Below are positions 15,278 to 63,110 of a stretch of 64,000 nt of DNA, piece after piece. The DNA is taken from the NCBI GenBank assembly GCA_964016885.1, contig CAXHJY010001554.1, positions 19,898-83,897 on the forward strand. The letters are read 5' to 3'. Under the pieces are notes generated by a model. It did not search any database. It saw only the letters and a program-made list of their open reading frames with translations, and was not told where the DNA came from. The translations under genes were made by a program, and so were the position numbers. Position 1 is the stretch's first letter; each line of letters begins with the position of its first letter. The stretch is from Eledone cirrhosa (taxonomy: Eukaryota).

Positions 15278-15759
15278 TAAATAGGTCTTAGGAGTTCTTG
15301 GTTAACGTAGGAGGTATTGTTTCGTTTTTAGAACGACCTTTCAGGCTGAGGTGCGCTTGTCAAACTGATGTGTATGTGGTGTGTCGTTCTATATATAGGG
15401 ATTTAACATGTCTGTGGTGTGGTGGGGGTTTTTTCTCCCCCTTTTTAATAAGTGTATGGGTGTAGGTGTGTTGAAAACTGACAAGCGCATCTCAGCGTGA
15501 AAGGTCGTTCTAAAAACGAAACAATACCTCCTACGTTAACCAAGAACTCCTAAGACCTAACTTAATTTATAAAATAATTTTTTTTAAGAAAAACTTTTTT
15601 TTTCTAATCCGGAAAAAAATTCTTTTTGGATTTTGTGAAGAAAATAAATTTGTTGAAAGCACAAGTGAAGCCATTTTTTCTTCCCCCTGTCTTAATATAC
15701 CTAACTGTACCAAGGATTACACACATTTTCCAATATTCTATCCCCTTGTACAAGACAGA

Positions 15760-16974
15760 ATGGCTAACACACGTTCAAAATCCTCTACTGAATCCCTCAA
15801 ATCGGATACACTACTACAGGAAATATCAGAAAAACTCACCATAATAATAGATAAATATGATTCCCTTACGAATGCCGTACAAGAAATGGAACAACAAACA
15901 CGCAGCTATAGGGAAAAACTTGATTCACTAATTACAGACCGACAAAAACAAGAACAAACCTTTTCTCCTGAAATAGCTACACATGAACAGAACTCCATCA
16001 CCAATAATGCATTCAAAGAATGGAATGAACTGAATCTAGAAAAAGAAGCCTACAGAAAAAGAAACCAAATGAAAAACATTTGGAACCAACTATTAAATCA
16101 AAGGAAACAGGCATACTGGAAAGCCTTGAGGAGTGAAAACCTAGCAGACACATACGAAATATGGCGTAGCAAGGAACCAGTTATCCTCCCGAGAAAATTC
16201 CGAATTAAAGAAATACCATCGGAATCAAAGGAAGAAACTGCAACAAGACTAAATCTAGCACTCCAAACACTTGAGACCGAAATCACCCTACTCCGCCTAA
16301 GAGTGCCAAAATTCAAAGAGAAATTTGAAAAATGCGACACCACCATACAAGAGGAAATAAACAAAAGAAGCAGCGGCAATGTACGTGAAAAACTCCTTAA
16401 CCTATGGCAGACAGATACAACTAGAGAGGAGTTAAAATATAAGAAAATCTTGGAGTCAAGAACTCAATGGCTTCAATAATATGAAGATAACTATGGGAAA
16501 GACCAAATAAAACCCAGAAAACAAAACCATAGGAAACCCCAGAACTCAGGAAAATACAACAACACAAGAAATGAAGCACCCACACACAATAAACCAACAA
16601 CAACCAGATATTGGGTAACCCCAAACACACAACTACATACAGACCCAATACTCAACACCAGAACCAGATACAACCACTGCCATAACACCAAGAACAATTA
16701 CCGGAGACAAAATCAAAGACACATGAATACTGAACGAAACAACAGAAGAACCAGACCCCCATACAGCAACGACCACGCAAGAGTCTATCGCCCAACCAGT
16801 TACCGGCATGAAGTTCCGGCGGGCCAAAGGTTTCACCACAACAGAAACACCCCTATCCCAAATGGCACCCATTTTTTAGGACTAGGGGCCTCGCACCAAA
16901 TGAAAGAAAAAAAGAAAAAAGCACCACCTTTCAAGTGGCACCTGACGAGGAAGAACCAATCGAACCAAAAATAA
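15760..16974 (+). pseudogene. PLE upstream ORF1 (helical/coiled-coil-like N-half, basic N/T/R-rich C-half), one premature TAA at 16477
   Basis: ORFs 15760-16479 and 16723-16974 are in the same frame and the sequence between them has no further stop. Confidence 0.65.
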
Positions 16975-19200
16975 TCAATATATCAGCCAAGAAATTAACA
17001 CAACCAGAAATACAACTGTTAGAAAATGGACTGAAGTTCACTCCCACTCCAAAAGCAGATACAGCCGACGTTATAAAAGACACAGAAGAATACTGTCGAA
17101 AATTACGCTTAGGAGAATTTTCCAGGGTGTACAATACGAGGAAGAATCACTGGTGAAAAACAAAAAGAACTTCACACCCCCGCCAAATAGAGATAAATAC
17201 CTGGAGGAATACATAACCTGCCTTCGCCGATCAGCACGTACAAATACGGCCGAGACGAAACACAAACGCAACATCCCTACAGACCAACTACTAGCATTGA
17301 ACAAGCTACAAAGGGATTCCTCAATAATAATAAAAGAAGCGGACAAAGGTGAAGTAATCGTCATCATGGACAATAACCACTACAAAGATATGGTTCTAGC
17401 ACACTTGAATGACGAAAACTTCTACAGGAAAATCACTAAAAACGAAGAAAGGAAATCGAGGAACCAAATAGGCAAACTAACAACAAAGTACCAAAACAAC
17501 CTAACACCAAAAGAAATAGATTACCTAACCAACTTCGAAATGAAAACCAGCAATTTCTATGGATTACCAAAAATTCACAAATCCATAGAAATCCAAAACA
17601 ACATAAAAGGGAAAAATACATCATACATCGAAGCACCAAAACCGACAGACTTAAAATTACGCCCCATTATTGCTGGCCCAGCCTCAAGCACACAACGTCT
17701 TAGCAACCTATTAGACATCATACTCAAACCCCTATGTAAAAAAAGTTCCAAGCTACATCAGAGATGATATGGAATTCCTTAACTATATCCCCCAAAAAGT
17801 ACACCAGGATACAATCCTAGTCAGTTTTGATGTAATAAGCCTGTACACTAACATCCCACACGACCTAGGGATTGAAGCTGTGGACTTCTGGATTACAAAA
17901 CACTCAAGTCACATTTCAGAAAGATTCCCCAAAGAATTCATCTTGGAAGGACTTAAATTAGTATTGGAAAACAACCACTTCCTCTTTGACAACGAACTTT
18001 ATCTACAAATAAAAGGAACAGCCATGGGTACCAAAGTGGCCCCTACATATGCAACGCTCGTTATGGGTCACTTAGAGGCAAAATTATATTCCCAACTACA
18101 GATAACATTCAGTCACGACTTCGCCTTCTACATTAATAAAACTGGAAACGTTACCTAGATGACTGCTTCATCTTCTGGAACAGAAGCCAAACAGACCTAC
18201 AAAAATTTTATTCGATCTTAAACAGGCTTCATGAAGCTATACAATTCACTATGGAATGTAACGAAAAGGAACTGCCCTTTCTAGATATCCTCATCATTAA
18301 AGAAGGGGAAAATATCATAACGGACCTATTTTGCAAACCCACTGACACACACCAAAACTTAAATTTCCGGTCAGCACACCCCTCACATACGAAAAGGAAC
18401 ATTCCCTTCAACGTGGCAAGGCGCATCTGCACTATAGCAACACACCCCGTACTACAAGAAAAAAGATTATGTGACCTGAAAAAATTCCTTAAAAAACAAG
18501 AATACCCGATGAAACTCATCAACGCAGACATCTCCAAGGCTAAGAACATCCCAATAACAACACTGAGAAAACCAAACCCACAACATAAAAAAGAAAACCC
18601 TGCTATCTCTTTTGTCATCACTCACAACCCAGGGAACATCAACATTGTGAAAACTGCTAAGCAGTATCTCCCGATTCTACAGCAATCTACCAAAATGAAT
18701 GCACTCTTAAAAACACACAGATAATTTATAGCAGACGCCAAGCACCCAACCTTAAAAAACTAATTACCAAGGCAAAATTTACGACCAACATGGAATCAAT
18801 GCAAGTGACGAAATGCGGGGACCCTAGATGTGGAACCTGTGAACTCATCGAAGAGGGCAAACAGTTGTCCTTCAAAAACCATGATAATTTCAAGGTCAAT
18901 GCAAACATGAACTGCAAAACGAAAAACCTAATATATTGCGCAACATGTCCACAGTGTAAAGAGTATTACATTGGGGAAACCGGAACGGGATTACATGATA
19001 GAGTCCGGGTACATAAACAACAAATTAAAGACCCCACAGTCAGAAATACCACATGTAGCGCACACTTTGCATCATGCGGGAAGGGAAAATTCACAATCTT
19101 CCCTTTCTTCAAGATATGGTCGGATAACGAACATTTCCGCAGATATAAAGAAGAATTCTTCATTGAAAAATTTAATCCACTACTGAACACGAAAAAATGA
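16872..19200 (+). pseudogene. PLE RT + zinc knuckle + GIY-YIG ORF, about 4 frameshifts (near 17135, 17740, 18135, 18720)
   Basis: IINISAKKLT..GLKFTPTP, IKEADKG, FYGLPKIHK, RPII, SFDVISLYTNI, GTAMG, RYLDD, LPFLDI, CGDPRCGTC, IYCATCPQC..YIGETG, RVRVH..AHF, E..FI....P.LN. Confidence 0.92.
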
Positions 19201-20392: not shown

Positions 20393-20722
20393 TGAACAAA
20401 GGACTAATTTTGGGATGGACGTAGAAAAATTCTTCATAAAAAAATAATTGTTTACAAACTTGGCAGGTGCGATTTGCTTGTGACCATTCTCAACACAAAG
20501 GAATCCCCTGAATAAAGGAATTTTTCGAGAATGACCGGGGCAGGCCACACTTGCTACATTTCTCCCCACCCACCCCTACTCACCGTCTCAACTCATTACT
20601 GCTATTAACACTTTTTCAACACACCTACACCCATACACTTATTAAAAAGGGGGAGAAAAAACCCCACCACACCACAGACATGTTAAATCCCTATATATAG
20701 AACGACACACCACATACACAAC

Positions 20723-20810
20723 AGTTTGACAAGCGCACCTCAGCGTGAAAGGTCGTTCTAAAAACGAAACAATACCTCCTACGTTAACCAAGAACTCCTA
20801 AGACCTAACT
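20723..20810 (+). ncRNA. Hammerhead motif with U3-A8 core and long stem III, family F (copies at 15282-15366 minus and 15478-15562 plus)
   Basis: AGT-TTGACAA-GCGC-acctca-GCGT-GAAA-GGTC-GTTCT..AGAAC..GACC-TA-ACT; CUA triplet; stem I only 3 bp. Confidence 0.6.
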
Positions 20811-20980
20811 TAATTTATAAAATAATTTTTTTTAAGAAAAAAAATTTTTTTCTAATCCGGAAAAAGTTCTTTTGGGATTTTGTGAAGAAAATAAATTTGT
20901 TGAACGTACAAGTGAAGCCATTTTTTCTTCCCCCCTGTCTAAATATACATATATATATAAATATATATATAAATATATAT

Positions 20981-35816: not shown

Positions 35817-38800
35817 TAAACTATGTTACTCAGGTAAACTATATTATGAGGTAAACTATATTAATGAGGTAAACTATGTTACTCAGGTAAACAATGTTAC
35901 TAAGGTAAACTATATTACTCAGGTAAACTATGTTACTGAGGTAAACTATATTACTCAGGTAAACTATGGTACTCAGCTAAACTATATTACTGAGGCAAAC
36001 TATATTACTCAGGTAAACTAGATTACTGAGGTAAATTATATTACTCAGGTAAACTATGTTACTCAGGTAAACTATGTTACTCAGGTAAACTATGTTACTC
36101 AGGTAAACTAGATTACTGAGGTAAACTATGTTACTCAGGTAAACTATGGTACTCAGCTAAACTATATTACTGAGTCAAACTATGTTACTCAAGTAAACTA
36201 TGCTACTTAGGTAAACTATATTACGGAGGTAAACTATATTACGGAGGTAAACTATATTACTGAGGTAAACTATATTACTGAGGTAAACTATATTACGGAG
36301 GTAAACTATATTACTCAGGTAAACTATATTACGGAGGTAAACTATATTACGGAGGTAAACTATATTACGGAGGTAAACTATATTACGGAGGTAAACTATA
36401 TTACGGAGGTAAACTATATTACTCAGGTAAACTATATTACTCAGGTAAACTATATTACTGAGGTAAACTATATTACGGAGGTAAACTATATTACGGAGGT
36501 AAACTATATTACGGAGGTAAACTATATTACTCAGGTAAACTATATTACTCAGGTAAACTATATTACTCAGGTAAACTATATTACACAGGTAAACTATATT
36601 ACTCAGGTAAACTATATTACTGAGGTAAACTATATTACTGAGGTAAACTATATTACTCAAGTAAATTATGTCACTCAGGTCAACTATATTACTGAGGTAA
36701 ACTATTACTCAGGCAAACTATATTACTCAGGCAAACTATATTACTCAGGTAAACTATATTACTCAGGTAAACTATATTACTGAGGTAAACTATGTTACTG
36801 AGGTAAACTATATTACTCAAGTAAATTATGTCACTCAGGTAAACTATATTACTCAGGTAAACTATATTACTCAGGTAAACTATATTACTCAGGTAAACTA
36901 TATTACTCAGGTAAACTATATTACTGAGGTAAACTATATTACTCAGGCAAACTATATTACTCAGGTAAACTATATTACTGAGGTAAACTATATTACTCAG
37001 GCAAACTATATTACTCAGGTAAACTATATTACTCAGGTAAACTATATTACTGAGGTAAACTATATTACTCAGGCAAACTATATTACTCAGGCAAACTATA
37101 TTACTCAAGTAAATTATGTCACTCAGGTCAACTATATTATTGAGGTAAACTATATTACTCAGGCAAACTATATTACTCAGGTAAACTATATTACTCAGGT
37201 AAACTATATTATTCAGGTAAATTATGTCACTCAGGGAAACTATATTACTGAGGTAAACTATATTACTCACGTAAACTATATTACTCAGGTAAACTATATT
37301 ACTCAGGTAAGTTATGTCACTCAGGGAAACTATATTACTGGAATAAACTATATTACTGAGGTAAAATATATTACTGAGGTAAACTATATTACTGAGGTAA
37401 ACTCTATTACTCAGTTAAAGTATGTTACTCAGGTAAACTCTATTACTCAGGTAAACTATGTTACTCAGCTAAACTTTGTTACTAAGGTAAACAATGTTAC
37501 TCAGGTAACTATATTACTCCCCTAAATTATATTGCACAGGTAAATTATATTACTGAGGTAAAGTATGTTACTGAGGTAAACTGTATTACACAGGTAAACT
37601 ATATCACTCAGGTAAACTATATTACTGAGTTAAACTATGTCACTCAGGTAAACTATATTACTGGCGTAAACTATATTACTCAGGTAAACTATATTACTCA
37701 GGTAAACTATATTACACAGGTAAACTATGTTACTCAGGTAAACTATATTACTCAGGTAAACTATATTACTCAGGTAAACTATATTACTCAGGTAAACTAT
37801 GTCACTCAGGTAAACTATATTACTGAGGTAAACTATATTACTGAGGTACACTATATTACTGAGGTAAACATTATTTCTCACGTATACTATGTTGCTCCGG
37901 TAAACTATACTCAGGTAAACTATATTACTCAGGTAAACTATATTACTGAGCTAAACTATATTGCTCAGGTAAACTATATTACTCAGGCAAACAATATTAC
38001 TCAGGTAAAGTAGATTACTGAGGTACACTATATTACTGAGGTAAACTAGATTACTGAGGTACACTATATTACTGAGGTAAATCATATTACTCAGGTAAAC
38101 TATATTACTCAGGTAAACTATATTACTCAGGTAAACTATGTTAATCAGGTAACTTTGTTACTCAGGTAAACTTTGTTACTCAGGTAAACTATGTTACTGA
38201 GGTAACTATATTACTCAGGTAAATTATATTACTCAGGTAAACTGTAACAGGTAAACTATATTACTGAGGTAAACTGTTACTCAGGTAAACTATATTACTC
38301 AGTTAAACTATATTACTCAGGTAATTATATTACACAGGTAAATTATATTACTGAGGTGAAGTATGTTACTGAGGTAAAATATGTTACTGAGGTAAACTAT
38401 ATTACACAGGTAAACTATATTACTCAGGTAAACTATATTACTGAGTCAAACTATGTTACTCAGGTAAACTATGCAACTGAGGTAAACTTTATTACACAGG
38501 TAAACTATATTACTGAGGTAAACTATATTACTGAGGTAAACTATATTACTCAGTTAAACAATATTACTCAGTTAAACTATATTACTCAGTTAAACTATAT
38601 TACTCAGGTAAACTATATTACTGAGGTAAACTATATTACTGAGGTAAACTATATTACTCAGGGAAACTATATTACTGGAGTAAACTATATTACTCGGGTA
38701 AACTATATTACTCAGGTAAATTATGTCACTCACGGAAACTATATTACTGAGGTAAACTATTACTCAGGTAAACTATATTACTCAGTTAAAGTGTGTTACT

Positions 38801-41800
38801 GAGGTAAACTATATTACTGGGGTAAACTATATTACTCAGCTAAACTTTGTTACTCAGGTAAACAATGTTACTTAGGTAACTATATTACTGGCGTAAACTA
38901 TATTACACAGTTAAACTATATTACTCAGGTAAACTATACTCAGGTAAACTATATTACTCAGGTAAACTATATTACTCAGGTAAACTATATTACTCGGGTA
39001 AACTATATTACACAGGTGTACTATATTACTGAGGTAAACATTATTTCTCACGTTTACTATGTTGCTCGGGTAAACTATATTACTCAGGTAAACTATATTA
39101 CTCAGGGAAACTATATGACTGAGGTAAACGATATTACTCAGGTAAACTATATTACTCAGGTAAACTATGTTACTGAGGTAAACTATATTACTGAGGTACA
39201 CTATATTACTGAGGTAAACTATATTACTGAGGTAAACTATATTACTGAGGTAAACTATATTACTCAGGTAAACTATATTACTCAGATAAACTATGTTACT
39301 GAGATAAACTATATTACTCAGGTAAATTATGGTACTCAGCTAAACTATATTACTTAGGCAAACTATATTACTGAGGTAAACTATATTACTGAGGTAAACT
39401 ATATTACTGAGGTAAACTATATTACACAGGTAAACTATATTACACAGGTAAACTATATTACTGAGGTAAACTATATTACTGAGGTAAACTATATTACTGA
39501 GGTAAACTATATTACTGAGGTAAACTATGTTAATCAGGTAAACTATGTTAATCAGGTAAACTCTGTTACTCAGGTAAACTTTGTTACTCAGGTAAACTTT
39601 GTTACTCAGGTAAACTTTGTTACTCAGGTAAACTTTTTTACTCAGGTAAACTTTTTTACTCATTAAACTTTGTTACTCAGGTAAACTTTGTTACTCAGGT
39701 AAACTATGTTACTGAGGTAACTATATTACTCAGGTAATTATATTACACAGGTAAATTATATTACTGAGGTGAAGCATGTTACTGAGGTAAAATATGTTAC
39801 TGAGGTAAACTATATTACTGGCGTAAACTATATTACTCAGTTAAACTATATTACTCAGTTAAACTATATTACTCAGTTAAACTATATTACTGAGGTAAAC
39901 TATATTACTCAGTTAAACTATATAATTGAGGTAAACTATGTTACTCAGGTAAACTATATTACTGAGGTAAACTATATTACTCGGGTAAACTATATTACTC
40001 GGGTAAATTATGTCACTCAGGTCAACTATATTACTGAGGTCAACTATATTACTCAGTTAAAGTATGTTACTCGGGTAAACTATATTACTGAGGTAACCTA
40101 TATTACTCATGTAAACTATGTTACTCAGCTAAACTTTGTTACTCAGGTAAACAATGTTACTGAGGTAACTATATTACTCAGGTAAATTATATTACACAGG
40201 TAAATTATATTACTGAGGTAAAGTATGTTACTGAGGTAAACTGTATTACACAGTTAAACTATATCACTCAGGTAAACTATATTACACACGTATACTATAT
40301 TACTGAGGTAAACATTATTTCTCACGTAAACTATGTTGCTCGGGTAAACTATATTACTCAGGTAAACTATATTACTCAGGCAAACTATATTACTCAGGCA
40401 AAGTATATTACTCAGGCAAAGTATATTACTCAGGTAAACTATATTACTCAGGTAAACTATATTACTGGGGTAAACTATGTTACTCAGCTAAACTATATTA
40501 CTCAGGTAAACTATGTTACTCAGCTAAACTGTTACTCAGGTAAACTATATTACTCAGGTAAACTATATTAATCAGGTAAACTATATTACTCAGGTAAACT
40601 ATATTACTGTGGTAAACTATATTACTGAGGTAAACTATATTACTGAGGTAAACTATATTACTGAGGTAAACTATGTTACTCAGCTAAACTATATTACTCA
40701 GGTGAACTATGTTACTCAGGTAAACTGTTACTCAGGTAAACTATATTACTGAGGTAAACTATGTTACTCAGGTAAACTATATTCTCAGGTAAACTATATT
40801 ACTGATGTAAAGCATATTACTGAGGTAAACTATATTACTCAGGTAAACCATATTACTGAGGTAAAATATATTACTGAGGTAAAATATATTACTGAGGTAA
40901 ACTATATTACTCAGGTAAACTATATTACTCAGGTAAACTATGTTACTGAGGTAAACTATGTTACTGAGGTAAACTAAGTTACTCAGGTAAACTATGTAAC
41001 TCAGGTAAACTATGTTACTCAGGTAAACTATAGTACTCAGGTAAACTATATTAGCGAGTCAAACTATATTACTCAGGTAAACTAGAATACTCAGGTAAAC
41101 TATGTTACTGAGGTAAACTATATTACTCAGGTAAATTATATTACACAGGTAAATTATATTACTGAGGTAAAGTATGTTACTGAGGTAAAATATGTTACTG
41201 AGGTAAAATATGTTACTGAGGTAAACTATATTACAGAGGTAAACTATATTACTCAGGTAAACTATATTACTCAGGTAAACTATATTACTGAGTCAAACTA
41301 TATTACTGAGTCAAATTATGTTACTCAGGTAAACTATGCTACTGAGGTAAACTATATTACTGGCGTAAACTATATTACTCAGGTAAACTATATTACTCAA
41401 ACTATATTACTGAGGTAAACTGTATTACTCAGTTAAACTATATTACTGAGGTAAACTATGTTAATCAGGTAAACAATGTTAATCAGGTAAACAATGTTAA
41501 TCAGGTAAACAATGTTAATCAGGTAAACAATGTTAATCAGGTAAACTATATTACTCAGGTAAACTATATTACTGGGGTAAACTATATTACTCAGTTAAAC
41601 TATATTACCCAGTTAAACTATATTACCCAGTTAAACTATATTACACAGGTAAACTATGTTACTCAGGTAAACTATATTACTCAGGTAAACTATATTACTC
41701 AGGTAAACTATATTACTCAGGTAAATTATATTACTCAGGTAAATTATATTACTCAGGTAAACTATATTCTCAGGAAAACTATATTACTCAGGTAAACTAT

Positions 41801-44800
41801 ATTACTCAGGTAAACTATATTACTCAGGTAAATTATATTATGAGGTAAACTATATTACTGAGGTAAACTATATTACACAGGTAAACTATATTGTTGAGGT
41901 AAACTATATTATTCAGGTAAACTGTAACAGGTAAACTATATTACGGAGGTAAACTGTTAGTCAGGTAAACTATACTACTCAGGTAAACTATATTACACAG
42001 GTATACTATATTACTGAGGTAAACATTATTTCTCACGTAAACTATGTTGCTCGGGTAAATTATATTACTCAGGCAAACTATGTTACTCAGGTCAACTATA
42101 TTACTGAGGTGAACTATATTACTGAGGTGAACTATATTACTGAGGTAAAGCATATTACGGAGGTAAACTATATTACTCAGGTAAACCATATTTATGAGGT
42201 AAACTATGTTACTGAGGTAAACTATGTTACTCAGGTAAACTATGTTACTCAGGTAAACTATATTCCTCAGGTAAACTATATTACTCAGACAAACTATATT
42301 ACTGAAGTACACTATATTACTGAGGTAAACTATATTACAGAGGTAAACCATATTACTGAGGTAAACTATATTACAGAGGTAAACCATATTACTGAGGTAA
42401 ACTATATTACTGAGGTAAACTATATTACTGAGGTAAACTATATTACTGAGGTAAACTATATTACTCAGTTAAAGTATGTTACTCAGGTAAACTATATTAC
42501 TGAGATAAACTATATTACTCAGGTAAACTATGTTACTCAGGTAAACTTTGTTACTGAGGTAACTATATTACTCAGGTAAATTATATTACACAGGTAAATT
42601 ATGTTACTGAGGTAAATATGTTACTGAGGTAAACTATATTACACAGGTAAACTATATTACACAGGTAAACTATATTACACAGGTAAACTATATTACACAG
42701 GTAAACTATATTACTCAGGTAAACTATATTACTCAGGTAAACTATATTACTCAGGTAAACTATATTACTCAGGTAAACTATGGTACTCAGCTAAACTATA
42801 TTACTGAGGTAAACTATATTACTCAGGTAAACTATATTACTGAGGTACACTATATTACTCAGGTAAACTATATTACTCGGGTAAAGTATGTTACTGAGGT
42901 AAACTATATTACTGAGGTAAACTATATTACTCAGGTAAACTATGTTAATCATTTAAACTTTGTTACTCATGTAAACTATGTTACTGAGGTAACTATATTA
43001 CTCAGGTAAATTATATTACACAGGTAAATTATATTACTGAGGTAAAGTATGTTACTGAGGTAAAATATGTTACTGAGGTAAACTATATTACACAGGTAAA
43101 CTGTATTGCTCAGGTAAACTATATTACTGTGTCAATCTATGTTACTCGGGTAAACTATGCTACTGAGGTAAACTATATTACTGGCGTAAACTATATTACT
43201 CAGTTAAACTATATTACTGAGGTAAACTATATTACTGAGGTAAACGATATTACTCAGGTAAACTATGTCACTCAGGTAAACTATATTATTGAGGTAAACT
43301 ATATTACTCAGGCAAACGATATTACTGACGTAAACAATATTACTCAGGTAAACTATATTACTCAGGTAAACTATATTACTCAGGTAAACTATATTACTCA
43401 GGTAAACTATATTACTCAGGTAAACTATATTACTCAGGTAAACTATATTACTCAGGTAAACTGTAACAGGTAAACTATATTACTGAGGTAAACTGTTACT
43501 CAGGTAAACTATATTACTCAGGTAAACTATATTACTCAGGTAAACTATATTACTCAGTTAAAGTATGTTATTCAGGTAAACTATATTACTGAGATAAACT
43601 ATATTACTCAGGTAAACTATGTTACTCAGGTAAACTTTGTTACTCAGGTAAACTTTGTTACTCAGGTAGACTTTGTTACTCAGGTAAACAATGTTACTGA
43701 GGTAACTATATTACTCTGGTAAATTATATTACACAGGTAAATTATATTACTGAGGTAAATATGTTACTGAGGTAAACTATATTACACAGGTAAACTATAT
43801 TACTGAGTTAAACTATGTTACTCAGGTAAACTATGTTAGTGAGGTAAACTATATTATTCAGGTAAACTGTAACAGGTAAACTATATTGCGGAGTTAAACT
43901 GTTACTCAGGTAAACTATATTAGTCAGGTAAACTATATTACACAGTTATACTGTATTACTGAGGTAAACATTATTTCTCACGTAAACTATGTTGCTCGGG
44001 TAAACGATATTATTCAGGTAAACTATATTACTCAGGTAAACTATATTACTCAGGTAAACTATATTACTCAGGCAAACTATATTACTCAGGCAAACTATGT
44101 TACTCAGGCAAACTATATTACTGAGGTAAACTATATTACTGAGGTAAACTATATTACTCAGCTAAATTATGTTACTCAGGTAAAATATGGTACTCAGCTA
44201 AACTATATTACTGAGGTAAACTATATTACTCAGGCAAACTATATTATTCAGGTAAAGTATGATACTGAGGTAAACTATATTACTGAGGTAAACTATGTTA
44301 ATCAGGTAAACTTTGTTACTGAGAAAACTATATTACTTAGGTAAATTATATTACACAGGTAAATTATATTACTGAGGTAAAGTATGTTACTGAGGTAAAA
44401 TATGTTACTCAGGTAAACTATATTACACAGGTAAACTATATTACTCAGGTAAACTATATTACTGAGTCAATCTATGTTACTCAGGTAAACTATGCTACTG
44501 AGGTAAACTATATTACTGGCGTAAACTATATTACTCAGTTAAACTATATTACTGAGGTAAACTATATTACTGAGGTAAACGATATTACTCAGGTAAACTA
44601 TGTCACTCAGTTAAACTATATTATTGAGGTAAACTATATTACTCAGGCAAACTATATTACTGAGGTAAACAATATTACTCGGGTAAACTATATTACTGAG
44701 GTAAACATTATTTCTCACGTAAACTATGTTGCTCGGGTAAACTATATTACTCAGGTAAACTATATTACTGAGGTAAATTATTACTGAGGTAAACTATTAT

Positions 44801-58130: not shown

Positions 58131-58152
58131 AGGCTTGGCACTTGTTGGTATA

Positions 58153-58159
58153 AGACGTG
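58153..58159 (+). promoter_or_regulatory. DPE-like AGACGTG motif near the LINE 5' end
   Basis: About 23 nt from the inferred 5' end; matches the internal-promoter motif known from Drosophila jockey/I-type LINEs. Confidence 0.35.
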
Positions 58160-58778
58160 AATTGTCGTCTCTCCGGATTTGAAATTTTAATATTTTAAAT
58201 CGACAGTAATCGGATTTATGTATGGTTTTAATTCTTCAGAGGACAAGGAAAACATACAAAAAAGATAAGTTTTTGTGCTTTGACGCAATTATTTTGAAGT
58301 ATATTTTACATATATTACCGTTTTGAACATGTTTATTTTCACTGTATGATTCATTCATGGGAGACAACACACACAGGTGCTTTCTATTTTTGTTTCATAC
58401 AGAGCATTTTGGTTTAGCTTAAGCAATTTTGTATTAATTTTGATATTTCTGAGTAACATAATTTAATTTGATATAATCTTGTTTGATTTTGTATAATCTT
58501 ATCTGTATTTGACCCGATTTCGTTGTTTCTTGTATGATATGCTGATATTACAATAACTCCGTATATTTGTAAACAGACATTTACATCGTGTTTCTATATC
58601 TCTGTTTCCGGTTTCTTCCATTCATTAATTTAAATTTAGATTTAAAAATTTATTTTTATATTTATGAACTGCAGTTGCTCACGCTCTCACGCTGTCTCTA
58701 TCTCTCTCCTTCCTCTCTCTCTCTCCCTCTCTTTCTCGATCAACGAGCTCTCTTTCTCCCTCTCTCTAGATCAACGAG

Positions 58779-58810
<32 letters not shown>

Positions 58811-59019
58811 TCTCTCTCTCCCTCTGACCCCCCCCCACTCTTCCCGCTATCTCTCTCGCTCCCCTCTTCTGTCTCCCCCTTTTCTTTTCTTTTCTTCTGT
58901 TTCTCTTTCTTTCTTTTTCTCTCGCTGGAGTTATATCTCTATCTCCCTCCCTCACCCTGTCCCTCTCTAACCTCTACTCTACACCTCCCACTGTCCCTCT
59001 TTCTCCCCTCCACAGCGAA

Positions 59020-59988
59020 ATGGACTGCATGCAGGAAAAATGGGAAAAATGTGAAATCAGGAGTCAGCGAAACTGGTCGAAGATTGAACTAGCGGTTTTG
59101 ATCAAGGGGTGGACTATGGCTGATGGGTCTCCACCAAGCAAAAAGATGGCGGAGAACCTGAAGAGCCATGGGTTTATGAGGACCCTGGTACAGATAGAGA
59201 GAAAGAGAAAAGAAATTGAGAAGGCGTATGTCCTCATAGCGCCTCATATGGCGATGCTAAGCCGTGTCCTCAGGGAGGAGAAAATCGAAGGGAGGGATGA
59301 GGAGAAGGAGAGGGAAAAGGAAGAGGAAAAGGAAAGGGAAAAAGAAAAGGAGGAGAGCACAAGCACGGACCTGAAAGAAAATGATATACCCTCCGCTACA
59401 GGCAGGGAGGGCAGGCCGGGCAACCAACAAGCTAAGGGCAAAGGTGAAAAGCGAAATCACCTTCCGAAGGAGAACCAAGCGCAGAGGGACCAGTGGACAA
59501 CTGTTCAAAGAAAGAACAGAAAGCACCGAGACACTGGGAGCAAAAAACACCAAGTAATGTGCAAGTTTTTCAAGAACGGGACATGCTGGCATGGAGAGAC
59601 AGGGATGGGATGCAGATTCGCCCACCCTAGGTCTCAAACGAACTATGCCCATCATACTCGCGCAACATGCCCCAGCCAAAGCCGAAGCCGAAATAAGCCG
59701 CTCCAGAAGTATGCTGATGTCGCGCGTGCTGCACCAACAAGGAGAAGGCACGCACATGCCGACGAGATACAGATGGCAGCAGCAGATCAGAAAAATTTTT
59801 TAGTGATGGCAGAGAAGATTGTGGGACAGCTGACCTGGCTGCATCGTCTCCAGAGCCAGGGTCATCCACACCAGCACTCGAGACCACCGCAGTTAAGGGA
59901 CCCAGAGTGGCCGCCGCTGACACCAGACCAGGTGTCATACCGACAGCCATTACTGGCACCCCAAAAGTCACACCAGTGCTGCTGCTGA
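59020..59988 (+). CDS. LINE ORF1: Myb/SANT-like N-terminus, charged linker, CCCH zinc finger
   Basis: WSKIELAVLIKGW..MAENLKSHGFMRTLVQIERKRKEI; CKFFKNGTCWHGETGMGCRFAHP; uninterrupted 322 aa. Confidence 0.8.
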   Translation: MDCMQEKWEKCEIRSQRNWSKIELAVLIKGWTMADGSPPSKKMAENLKSHGFMRTLVQIERKRKEIEKAYVLIAPHMAMLSRVLREEKIEGRDEEKEREKEEEKEREKEKEESTSTDLKENDIPSATGREGRPGNQQAKGKGEKRNHLPKENQAQRDQWTTVQRKNRKHRDTGSKKHQVMCKFFKNGTCWHGETGMGCRFAHPRSQTNYAHHTRATCPSQSRSRNKPLQKYADVARAAPTRRRHAHADEIQMAAADQKNFLVMAEKIVGQLTWLHRLQSQGHPHQHSRPPQLRDPEWPPLTPDQVSYRQPLLAPQKSHQCCC

Positions 59989-62948
59989 ATGTCAGGGGCC
60001 TGGTGAAACTCAGCAACATGAGTAAAATTTCCTACCTGGGAGACTTAGCCATAAGCAATCAAGCACTATGCATGGCACTAACCGAAACGCACCTGACAAG
60101 CAGTATAGCAGATGCAGAAATACATATACCGAAATATACTGTATTTCGTTCGGACAGGAAGGAGAGAACTCATGGTGGGGTTGCTCTGTATATCCGTGAA
60201 GATGTCACACCAATTGTACTGTTGACACATTCAAACTCAGTCTGTGACACACTGATAATACATATGAAGCAACTACAGACGGTAATATGTGTCACATATC
60301 GGCCGCCCGATGCCCCCAGTCATGAGGGTAAATTTGAGGATAGCCTAAGTAGGATAGAAGAGGTCCTTGACAAACTGGACCAGGGTCTCAACATCCTACT
60401 GCTGGGAGACTTCAACCTACCAAAGGTCAAATGGCCTGAGGGCCACCTCCTCCCTGGAATGACGTCAATAGAACAGAGAGAGACGGAATCCCTGCTGGCC
60501 CTCACACACAGGCTGTTCATGGAGCAAGCAATACTCCTCCCAACAAGAGGCGAAAATGTCCTGGACCTCTGTTTTACAAACAACGAAGTGCTCATCCACA
60601 ATGTAAAGGTGACACCAACAATTCTCTCGGATCATAACTTGGTAGAGCTAATGATATGTGGTCCAAGAGAACCAACAGAGACAAAACCACCAAGAAGCTC
60701 CGGGACGCTATCCAGCCTTAACTTCTACGGGGCTGACTGGAAGAAGATTAAGAGTGAAATCCGGAAGCAAACATGGAGTGCAAACATCGCCACACAAGAC
60801 ACTAACACACAATTTCAACACTTCATGACAACGATACACACCATATGCAAAAAGTGTGTCCCGGAGAAAGAGGCAAACAGACACAAAAATCTTATTCCCA
60901 GAGATAGGAAAATCCTTATGAGACGTAGAACTAAACTCTCAAACCAGTTGAATAGTCAACAAAACCAAAACAAGAAGGAATCCTATTTGAAACGTGCACT
61001 ACTTGACACCGAGATTGCACTCAAGCTTTCACATGAGAATGAGAGGGCAAGGAAAGAGAACAGGGCCATAGAAAACATTAAAACAAACCCTAAGGCCTTC
61101 TTTAAATTTGCAAAAGAAACTGCCTCAGTACACTGCAAGATTGGACCACTCTTCCACACGGACGGTTCATTAATCGAAAATCCCCAAGAGATATGTGAAA
61201 TACTGAACGAACAGTACAAAAGTGTCTTCACATGTCCACTGAGGCACATGCAAATAACGAAGCCAGAGGAGTTCTTTGATGCCACAACACTACATCAAGA
61301 AATGGCAACCATCAACCACATAGACATAACGGAGGAGGATGTGGTGTACGCCATTGATGAAATTAGAACAGACTCGGCTGCTGGACCTGATGGATTCCCA
61401 GCAGTTCTCCTAAAAATATGTAAGCGGGCCTTAGCAACTCCACTGAAGATGCTCTTCAGAAGCTCCTTGGCTAGCGGTGTACTACCCAGGGAGCTGAAAG
61501 AAAGCACAATATGCCCTATCCATAAAGGAGGTAGTAGAGCGGAGGCCAAGAACTATAGGCCAGTCTCCCTGACGTCGCATATCAGTAAGGTCATGGAGCG
61601 AGTCGTCAGAAAGAAACTAATCACTTTCCTCGAAGAAAATGACTGCCTGACTAGCACGCAACATGGCTTCCGCCCAGGAAGAAGCTGCCTTACACAGCTG
61701 CTACATCACTACGACTGGGTACTGAGACAGCTACTAGACAGCTCACATGTAGACGTGATATATCTTGACTTTGCGAAGGCCTTTGACAAGGTCGACCACG
61801 GAATGATATGTCACAAACTACACGGACTCGGCATAACTGGAAAAGTAGGTGAGTGGCTGCATGGCTTCCTGAGGGACAGAAGCCAGGCAGTCGCAGCAAA
61901 TGGGGCCCTCTCGAGGGAAACACCGATAACAAGTGGGGTGCCTCAGGGGACAGTCCTGGGACCACTACTGTTTTTGGTGGCTCTCTCGGACATGCCCTCT
62001 GTGGTGCATGCAACAACATCCCTCACTAGCTATGCTGATGACACTAAGGTAGCACAGGCAATCAAAAACCCAGCTGACGCTGCCCTCTTACAGCAGGATC
62101 TGGATGCCATATACAGATGGGCAGAAGAAAACAACATGCAGTTTAATGCTGGCAAATTCCAAGCCCTACAATACAAACCTGCAAACACAAACACAAATAT
62201 AGCGGAACACAGCTACACAGGACCAGGAGGTACCGATATCCCCGTGTCAAAATCGATACGAGACCTGGGCATAGACATGAGCGATGATGCATCTTTTTCT
62301 TCACACATCATGAAGGTGGCGACAGCATGTAGACGATTCGCTGGCTAGATCTTGAGGACTTTCCTTACAAGAGATCGAGACACCATGTTGACACTGTGGA
62401 GGACTTTTGTCCTAAGCCGCCTGGACTACTGCTCCCAGCTGTGGTCACCCCATAGTGTCAAACTAACCACAGAGCTTGAGGCAATCCAGCGAAGCTACAC
62501 CAAGAGGATTGCCAAGATGAGGGAGACAAGCTACTGGGAGAGGCTGAAGGAACTGAACCTCTACTCCTTGGAGCGAAGACGGGAGAGATACGCAGTGATC
62601 TACATGTGGAAAATCCTGGAGGGACTAGCACCAAACTTTGGCATTGGGAGCTGGACCAACCGTCGAACAGGACGTCACTGTGTGGTGCCAAAGGTCCCGT
62701 CTTCCACATCTAGAATAAGGAGCAGGTATTGCAATAGCCTGGGATTCAAGGGCCCTCAACTCTTCAACAGGCTGCCGAGGCATCTGCGAGACTTGCATGA
62801 CGTGGAGGTGGATGTCTTTAAGAAACATCTCGACAACTTGTTATCCAGGATCCCGGATGAGCCCACAGCAAGACACGAGGGAAACCTAAGGGCAGCAGCA
62901 ACAAACTCCCTCCTACACCAGTGGCCAACCTATACAGGCTGGAGATAA
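59796..62948 (+). pseudogene. LINE ORF2 (APE endonuclease + RT), single in-frame TAG at 62346-62348
   Basis: LLNVRGL, LTETHL, GGVALY, YRPP, GDFN, LDL, SDH; GPDG, YRPVSLTS, QHGFR, DFAKAFDKV, GVPQG, YADD; 62352-62948 continues in the same frame. Confidence 0.93.
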
Positions 62949-63022
62949 AATGTGTAGCAACAAGGGCGGTGCCCCAGCATGGCCTCAGCCGGATGGCTGA
63001 AACAGGTAAAAGAGTAAAAGAG

Positions 63023-63110
<88 letters not shown>

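Follow-up and report, generated by a model that had tools for sequence, protein, structure and literature searches.

A conserved U_UUU_UUA heptamer at the ORF1-ORF2 junction of CR1-clade LINEs points to translation of ORF2 by programmed -1 frameshifting

How LINEs translate ORF2 is treated as an open question in review passages on the subject. For SART1 and L1, such passages describe UAAUG coupling and reinitiation, respectively, on a bicistronic RNA, with low ORF2 output that depends on translation of ORF1; a passage of PMC5009743 mentions frameshifting in the gag of HeT-A and non-frameshift routes for TART and L1, and one in a further review (PMC5911963) states that ORF2 of the Dictyostelium elements TRE5-A and TRE3-A depends on a -1 frameshift. 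The HIV shift site is U_UUU_UUA, which yields both Leu and Phe forms and is often followed by G (passages of PMC5009743), and the usual spacer at -1 sites is given in a review passage as 5-9 nt, with 3-14 nt in other cases and 11-14 nt at arterivirus and cardiovirus sites. Here we examine a LINE in the window, by which we mean the whole 64,000-nt stretch of DNA analysed, that resembles HIV-1 gag-pol in having the same heptamer in the same phase, with a nucleic-acid-binding ORF upstream and an RT-bearing ORF in the -1 frame. Unlike HIV-1, the element is a non-LTR retrotransposon with an APE endonuclease and no protease or integrase, its ORF1 and those of its relatives run on for 63-164 codons past the site, there is no constant stem at 5-9 nt, and the frameshift is a prediction from sequence. 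TRE5-A and TRE3-A, whose ORF2 is said to require such a shift (PMC5911963), are likewise non-LTR elements of APE type, but are amoebozoan and target tRNA genes, and the review passage names no heptamer or stimulator for them, whereas the defined heptamer described here is conserved across an animal CR1 subclade. SART1 and L1 differ in giving a separate ORF2 protein; here an overlap of 193 nt from the heptamer predicts a fusion. An original prediction made for this locus had held that studied LINEs make ORF2 by reinitiation or coupling, which agrees with the review passages on L1 and SART1 but not with that on the two Dictyostelium elements.

The element is a full-length, young LINE on the + strand (58132..63025), with a 5' start and 3' tail common to copies in the genome, a 5' UTR containing a CT-rich tract (58132..59019, +), and a 3' tail (63005..63025, +) of two copies of the 8-nt unit AAAAGAGT followed by (TA)n, which was found at 12/12 3' ends including the window's own. 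Its anatomy is of CR1 type (APE plus RT in ORF2, a separate ORF1, a short tandem-repeat 3' tail and 5'-truncated copies), and its RT motifs, compared by eye with a published alignment rather than by a tree, closely match O.sinensis_114_LINE, listed as Jockey/CR1 in Table S7 of PMC10294476. Judged from these motifs, the LINE is a member of the CR1 clade; Proto2, a first guess at its identity, was dropped, because at each core motif seen its RT departs from the Proto2 sequences of the published alignment. With the CR1-clade families of O. sinensis and O. bimaculoides (Jockey superfamily; PMC10294476) it shares two ORFs, APE plus RT and the short tandem-repeat tail; in contrast to them, the subclade to which it belongs combines a PHD finger with several CCCH-like ones in its ORF1. 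The source of the nearest named ORF1 homologue is Octopus vulgaris, and the LINE itself is most probably octopod. The 1076-codon ORF2 frame is open in 52 of the 150 listed genome copies (counted by hand), indicating that the family is young and that the junction is neither a sequencing error nor a decayed frame. Amongst distinct copies the heptamer is kept in 39/43 at identities of at least 97%, 20/25 at 90-97% and 10/18 below 90%. The young copies are about 98-99% alike and their first set was picked by identity across the site; they were accordingly dropped as a conservation test and used for anatomy only. Separately, (TA)n flanks the LINE at both ends (12/12 3' ends and 11/13 5' ends, the other two being cut by the edge of the locus), with (TA)n microsatellites holding copies at both ends (58132 and 63025 in the window; L259-L270), the 5'-truncated L032 and L035 included, a setting that is likely to reflect a target preference.

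ORF1 (322 aa; 59020..59988, +) runs from the ATG at 59020 to a TGA at 59986-59988 and comprises, in order, an N-terminal domain, one CCCH-type finger, the FL motif that coincides with the shift site, a segment likely to be helical and a tail rich in Q and P. Its relatives carry a PHD finger and several CCCH-like fingers, as judged from weak Pfam CCCH and PHD matches among them, and the window ORF1 has kept one finger and has an N-terminus (59020-59260) unlike theirs. This N-terminal region weakly resembles a Myb/SANT-like domain (PF13837, E 0.14, one alignment member), and some ORF1 homologues of the subclade (P0083, P0086) have an extra PF02338 domain, presumably an OTU-like protease; the ESM Atlas gave no usable match for ORF1. 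The ORF2 frame (59718..62948, +) encodes a linker, the APE endonuclease (from about 59985), RT and a C-terminal region, and in the window copy is open over 59718-62348, where it meets a premature TAG (62346-62348). Its first ATG, at 60018, is residue 101, and the Pfam Exo_endo_phos match begins at residue 90; we take the first Asn of the endonuclease to be the APE residue, an assumption that rests also on this Pfam match, as searching the PDB by sequence returned no structure of an APE.

The two frames are both open over 193 nt (59796..59988, +), of which frame 0 encodes the ORF1 tail and frame -1 a linker rich in S, T, A and P. At the start of this overlap lies U_UUU_UUA in -1 phase (59796..59802, +), ORF1 reading AAT TTT TTA GTG (NFLV) so that TTTTTTA sits in the X_XXY_YYZ arrangement; in the window LINE's family alone, it is overlapped by an in-phase A_AAU_UUU placed one codon upstream. 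A single TTTTTTA is present within 59020-62948, as in every one of six related contigs (2.9-5.1 kb) that were checked, and always at the junction site. The NFLV reading, an overlap of about 190 nt and a -1 frame open into the APE domain with its first AUG inside that domain had all been claimed in the original prediction, and all three are borne out.

A metagenome scan with an alignment of five endonuclease sequences returned at least 41 loci. The closest twelve among the matches listed were designated L121-L132, of which L128 and L132 stop short of the junction; the other ten, with endonucleases 30-47% identical to that of the window LINE, all have TTTTTTA in -1 phase within a long ORF1, 2-48 codons downstream of the last stop in the ORF2 frame, so that the in-phase heptamer is present at 11/11 readable junctions (the window and these ten loci, among the matches listed). 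A second LINE family of the same genome, with an APE domain 38% identical to that of the window LINE, has the heptamer in 30/30 copies and no AUG before the domain. All 12 lineages with a readable junction (window, second family and the ten loci among the matches listed) therefore share heptamer and phase, and in an endonuclease tree of 40 rows, from which L132, L156 and L161 were left out as short matches, they form one clade together with the truncated L128 (support 98/91). Amongst the other 29 loci in the matches listed, less seven with under 100 nt of upstream sequence, the heptamer was found in phase in 0/22 informative outgroup LINEs; conservation of heptamer and phase, which had been put forward as a check, is thus seen within the clade and in none of these outgroups. 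A scan of viral contigs gave 385 pattern matches, none of them related.

Given fixed ORF1 residues and the element's own codon usage, the chance of the heptamer is 0.003-0.048 per lineage, and control FL dipeptides in these ORF2s are encoded as T_TTT_TTA at 0/34 sites. In 11/11 no stop interrupts the -1 frame between the heptamer and the end of ORF1 (chance 0.0002-0.16 each under synonymous recoding), and upstream of the heptamer the ORF2 frame shows 2-15 stops per 40-100 codons. Multiplied over the 11 lineages these chances come to 1e-19.9 for the heptamer and 1e-17.2 for the open frame, products that are not true P values and overstate the number of independent events because the lineages share ancestry. 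The codon before FL varies (AAT, TCT, GAT, CAT, CCT and AGT, for N, S, D, H and P), and always ends in T. At the protein level FL follows the last finger in 116/118 ORF1 homologues (a further 2/120 had no parsed finger) and in 103/108 of a second, partly independent set (10/118 unparsed), counts that may be biased because the search profile contained the FL columns; the residue before FL almost always permits an NNU codon, the two exceptions being earlier chance FLs with the proper site further on. With E <=1e-10, the ORF1 profile matched 2,095 clusters among 50%-identity representatives, and an ORF2 homologue with the same PHD finger is named from Mnemiopsis leidyi (protein level only). Against a frameshifting reading stand the old, decayed copies of the same genome, which keep the full heptamer in 13/30 of one set and in the 10/18 given above, and the S, D or N before the helix, which also fits N-capping.

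Taken together, we consider programmed -1 frameshifting at U_UUU_UUA, producing an ORF1-ORF2 fusion, to be highly probable; the heptamer and its phase, conserved across the CR1 subclade, argue strongly, at the level of sequence, for the fusion that had been predicted. Most ribosomes would end ORF1 at 59986 and give the 322-aa product, and a minority would slip back one base at the heptamer to read ...QKNF(L/F)-SDGRED.... In intact copies the fusion would be about 1,309 aa long, made up of 261 residues of ORF1 with its CCCH finger and 1,048 that begin SDGRED and include the linker, APE and RT. Slippage would then fix a low ORF2:ORF1 ratio, and the fusion would equip the enzyme with an RNA-binding module that keeps it on its own RNA, the part played by Gag in Gag-Pol.

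The distribution of start codons bears on the principal competing explanation, in which ORF2 is translated by termination-reinitiation or coupling, as in SART1 and L1, through restart at an AUG or near-cognate codon adjoining the ORF1 stop. Between heptamer and first APE Asn, 9/12 lineages are AUG-free, and L121, L123 and L125 have one or two in-frame AUGs there, so that the predicted lack of an in-frame AUG before APE holds for nine lineages and fails for three; one further lineage has an in-frame AUG upstream of the heptamer. In L123 and L125 an AUG lies two codons before the Asn, next to the ORF1 stop, and in the window CUG CUG CUG (59979-59987) overlaps the ORF1 UGA and might permit a near-cognate restart; reinitiation is moreover the route given for SART1 and L1 in review passages, with AUG-independent initiation noted for L1 in a passage of PMC5009743. 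In 11/11 the ORF1 stop itself precedes the APE Asn codon by 2, 11 or 20 nt, whatever the length of the overlap (63-164 codons), a placement that frameshifting does not require and for which linker recoding gives a product of 1e-9.9, although it is partly expected because hydrophilic linkers rarely create +1-frame stops (per-locus P 0.01-0.53). Reinitiation nevertheless leaves unexplained both the invariant in-phase heptamer and a -1 frame open for 64-171 codons upstream of APE, and there is no conserved start codon at the ORF1 stop. As the means of making ORF2 we consider it improbable, though it could also serve as a second route beside frameshifting, and the placement of the stop may reflect either such a route or selection on the ORF1 tail itself. 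Many database ORF2 proteins of the subclade have been called from inside the endonuclease domain, and some callers fuse the ORFs.

Two further explanations place the change of frame at the RNA level. In one, ORF2 would be translated from a spliced mRNA, with TTTTTTAG acting as the 3' acceptor for splicing or trans-splicing; a G follows the heptamer in 12/12 lineages, creating a U tract plus AG, but the next base in the older subfamily is A in 24/30 copies, TTTTTTAG is present there in 0/30 and the next AG lies at scattered distances, and in 11/116 homologues the residue after FL cannot be encoded by a codon starting with G. Among loci L001-L120 (60 of them fetched without requiring ORF1) neither a young copy nor a deletion has an end point at 59804, and no joint at the junction site was present among the joints listed from three sequencing runs of unspecified kind. 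Splicing at TTTTTTAG is thus very unlikely, since the older subfamily lacks the AG (0/30) and no spliced copy was seen. In the other, some transcripts would gain an extra U as RNA polymerase slips on the T6 run, and the frames would thereby be joined. This would account for a homopolymer run as the conserved feature and for the unstable run length in old copies, but polymerase slippage does not depend on codon phase and should select for longer runs, whereas exactly six T occur in the same phase in 12/12. A six-nucleotide run is short for Pol II slippage. Modest slippage of HIV RT at the same heptamer is noted in a passage of PMC5009743; we nonetheless rate polymerase slippage as low as splicing.

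It is less probable still, and largely refuted by these sequence comparisons, that FL is conserved purely for the protein, as a motif with which an ORF1 helix begins, and that the heptamer is a by-product, for whilst FL does open a conserved helix-like segment and S/D/N-F-L-E resembles what we take to be a capping box, T_TTT_TTA is found in 11/11 lineages despite its low chance in each and in none of the control FL sites, and ORF2 would be left without a start.

We return to frameshifting at the heptamer and to the RNA downstream of it. The minimum-free-energy fold of the window contains a predicted stem-loop (59820..59870, +; 59820-24/59866-70 and 59831-40/59854-64), most of whose pairs have probabilities above 0.9, beginning 17 nt after the heptamer and so farther away than even the 11-14 nt of the arterivirus and cardiovirus sites. 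Comparison of the window family with an older subfamily (30 copies, 72-90% identical to an old query copy) shows 20 differing columns over 59803-59880, and the four of these that fall in the stem-loop's 30 paired positions make up two compensatory pairs, 59824:59866 and 59835:59860, with G-C to A-T in 28/30 copies and C-G to T-A in 26/29 (two events, from one comparison). The region is no stabler than its shuffles (z +0.14), and the stem-loop may be regarded as a candidate stimulator or protein-binding site. Stable stems, taken as those for which any of three window sizes gave z <= -2, are predicted about 6-9 nt downstream in 5/12 lineages (L124, L126, L129, L130 and L131; z -2.0 to -3.7), and none was found at a 5-9 nt spacer in the other seven (the window, L121, L122, L123, L125, L127 and L166; z -1.1 to +1.4). 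A positional folding scan of 11 junctions gave no clear peak, the mean z never falling below -1.0, and RNAalifold found no structure in a 31-row alignment of decayed copies.

An H-type pseudoknot had been proposed in the original prediction, and its four arms are present at the stated coordinates, each stem needing a bulge, but stem 1 would start at a distance of 2 nt from the heptamer, nearer than the usual 5-9 nt. Of the seven pairs of stem 1, two are disrupted in the older subfamily (4/27 and 2/30 copies pair), and its pairing probability is 0.0 in a nested ensemble computed by a program that cannot model pseudoknots; the pseudoknot was rejected. The proposed stem 2 fared better: it falls within the longer hairpin at 59820-59870 and is kept, with a compensatory pair. 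The stimulator would accordingly vary between lineages, five relatives having a near stem at about 6-9 nt and the window family, as a putative stimulator, the conserved stem-loop that starts at 17 nt.

The window also contains a Penelope-like element (15514-19200; RT and GIY-YIG, the latter by a match) with a long upstream ORF, in which TTTTTTA occupies 16872-16878 in -1 phase and the RT frame begins without a preceding Met. The heptamer is kept in 24/30 copies of this element, in 1/2 at about 82% identity and in 2/4 copies of a family 50-61% identical (L253, L255), and intact 796-codon Penelope-like frames exist elsewhere in the genome. These counts are suggestive of Penelope-like elements sharing the frameshift strategy. 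The original prediction had seen in the two unrelated classes a shared, overlooked strategy; the Penelope-like counts of 24/30 and 2/4 support the first half of that claim at the level of sequence, but the strategy is not wholly overlooked, because TRE5-A and TRE3-A are said in the review passage to need a -1 frameshift (PMC5911963). Elsewhere in the window, sequence from the 5' region of the Penelope-like element recurs downstream and, in partly inverted form, upstream (15340-15720, 20600-20950), as expected for Penelope pseudo-LTRs, and several + strand frames within 36200-43500 weakly match the Pfam LED repeat (below cut-off), forming a degenerate, tandem coding-like repeat.

Frameshift-made ORF2 is a route rarely described for LINEs, the precedent of TRE5-A and TRE3-A notwithstanding. 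Full-text searches of the literature, whose scope did not extend to subscription journals or Repbase Reports, where an earlier annotation could lie, turned up no account of a slippery site conserved in CR1 elements or in animal LINEs of other kinds, nor was one present in the passages located by search terms in PMC5009743, PMC3894237, PMC2881922, PMC4120745, PMC10294476 (plus parts of its supplements), PMC5911963, PMC5006619, PMC11203168 and bioRxiv 2021.01.24.427974. By term search, the words CCCH, frameshift and overlap are absent from the ORF1 survey PMC4120745, and 'frameshift' is absent from the main text of PMC10294476.

More broadly, and with less assurance than for frameshifting at the heptamer itself, we lean towards the view that throughout a very large animal CR1 subclade, with about 2,100 ORF1 clusters (50% identity) and a range extending from octopods at least as far as a ctenophore, ORF2 is produced exclusively in Gag-Pol-like fusion with ORF1, by way of an HIV-type slippery site that does not vary; that the distant stem-loop of the window family may bind the CCCH-finger ORF1 protein and so tune shifting, as in cardioviruses; and that Penelope-like elements of the same genome use the same heptamer independently. 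A defined slippery site found clade-wide makes the translation of LINE ORF2 directly testable, and a fusion would offer a simple route to both cis preference and stoichiometry. If frameshifting is indeed used, ORF2 is mis-annotated, its real N-terminus being ORF1 with its zinc fingers, and the subclade would provide a large natural collection of eukaryotic -1 cassettes that share a single heptamer but differ in the 3' stimulator.
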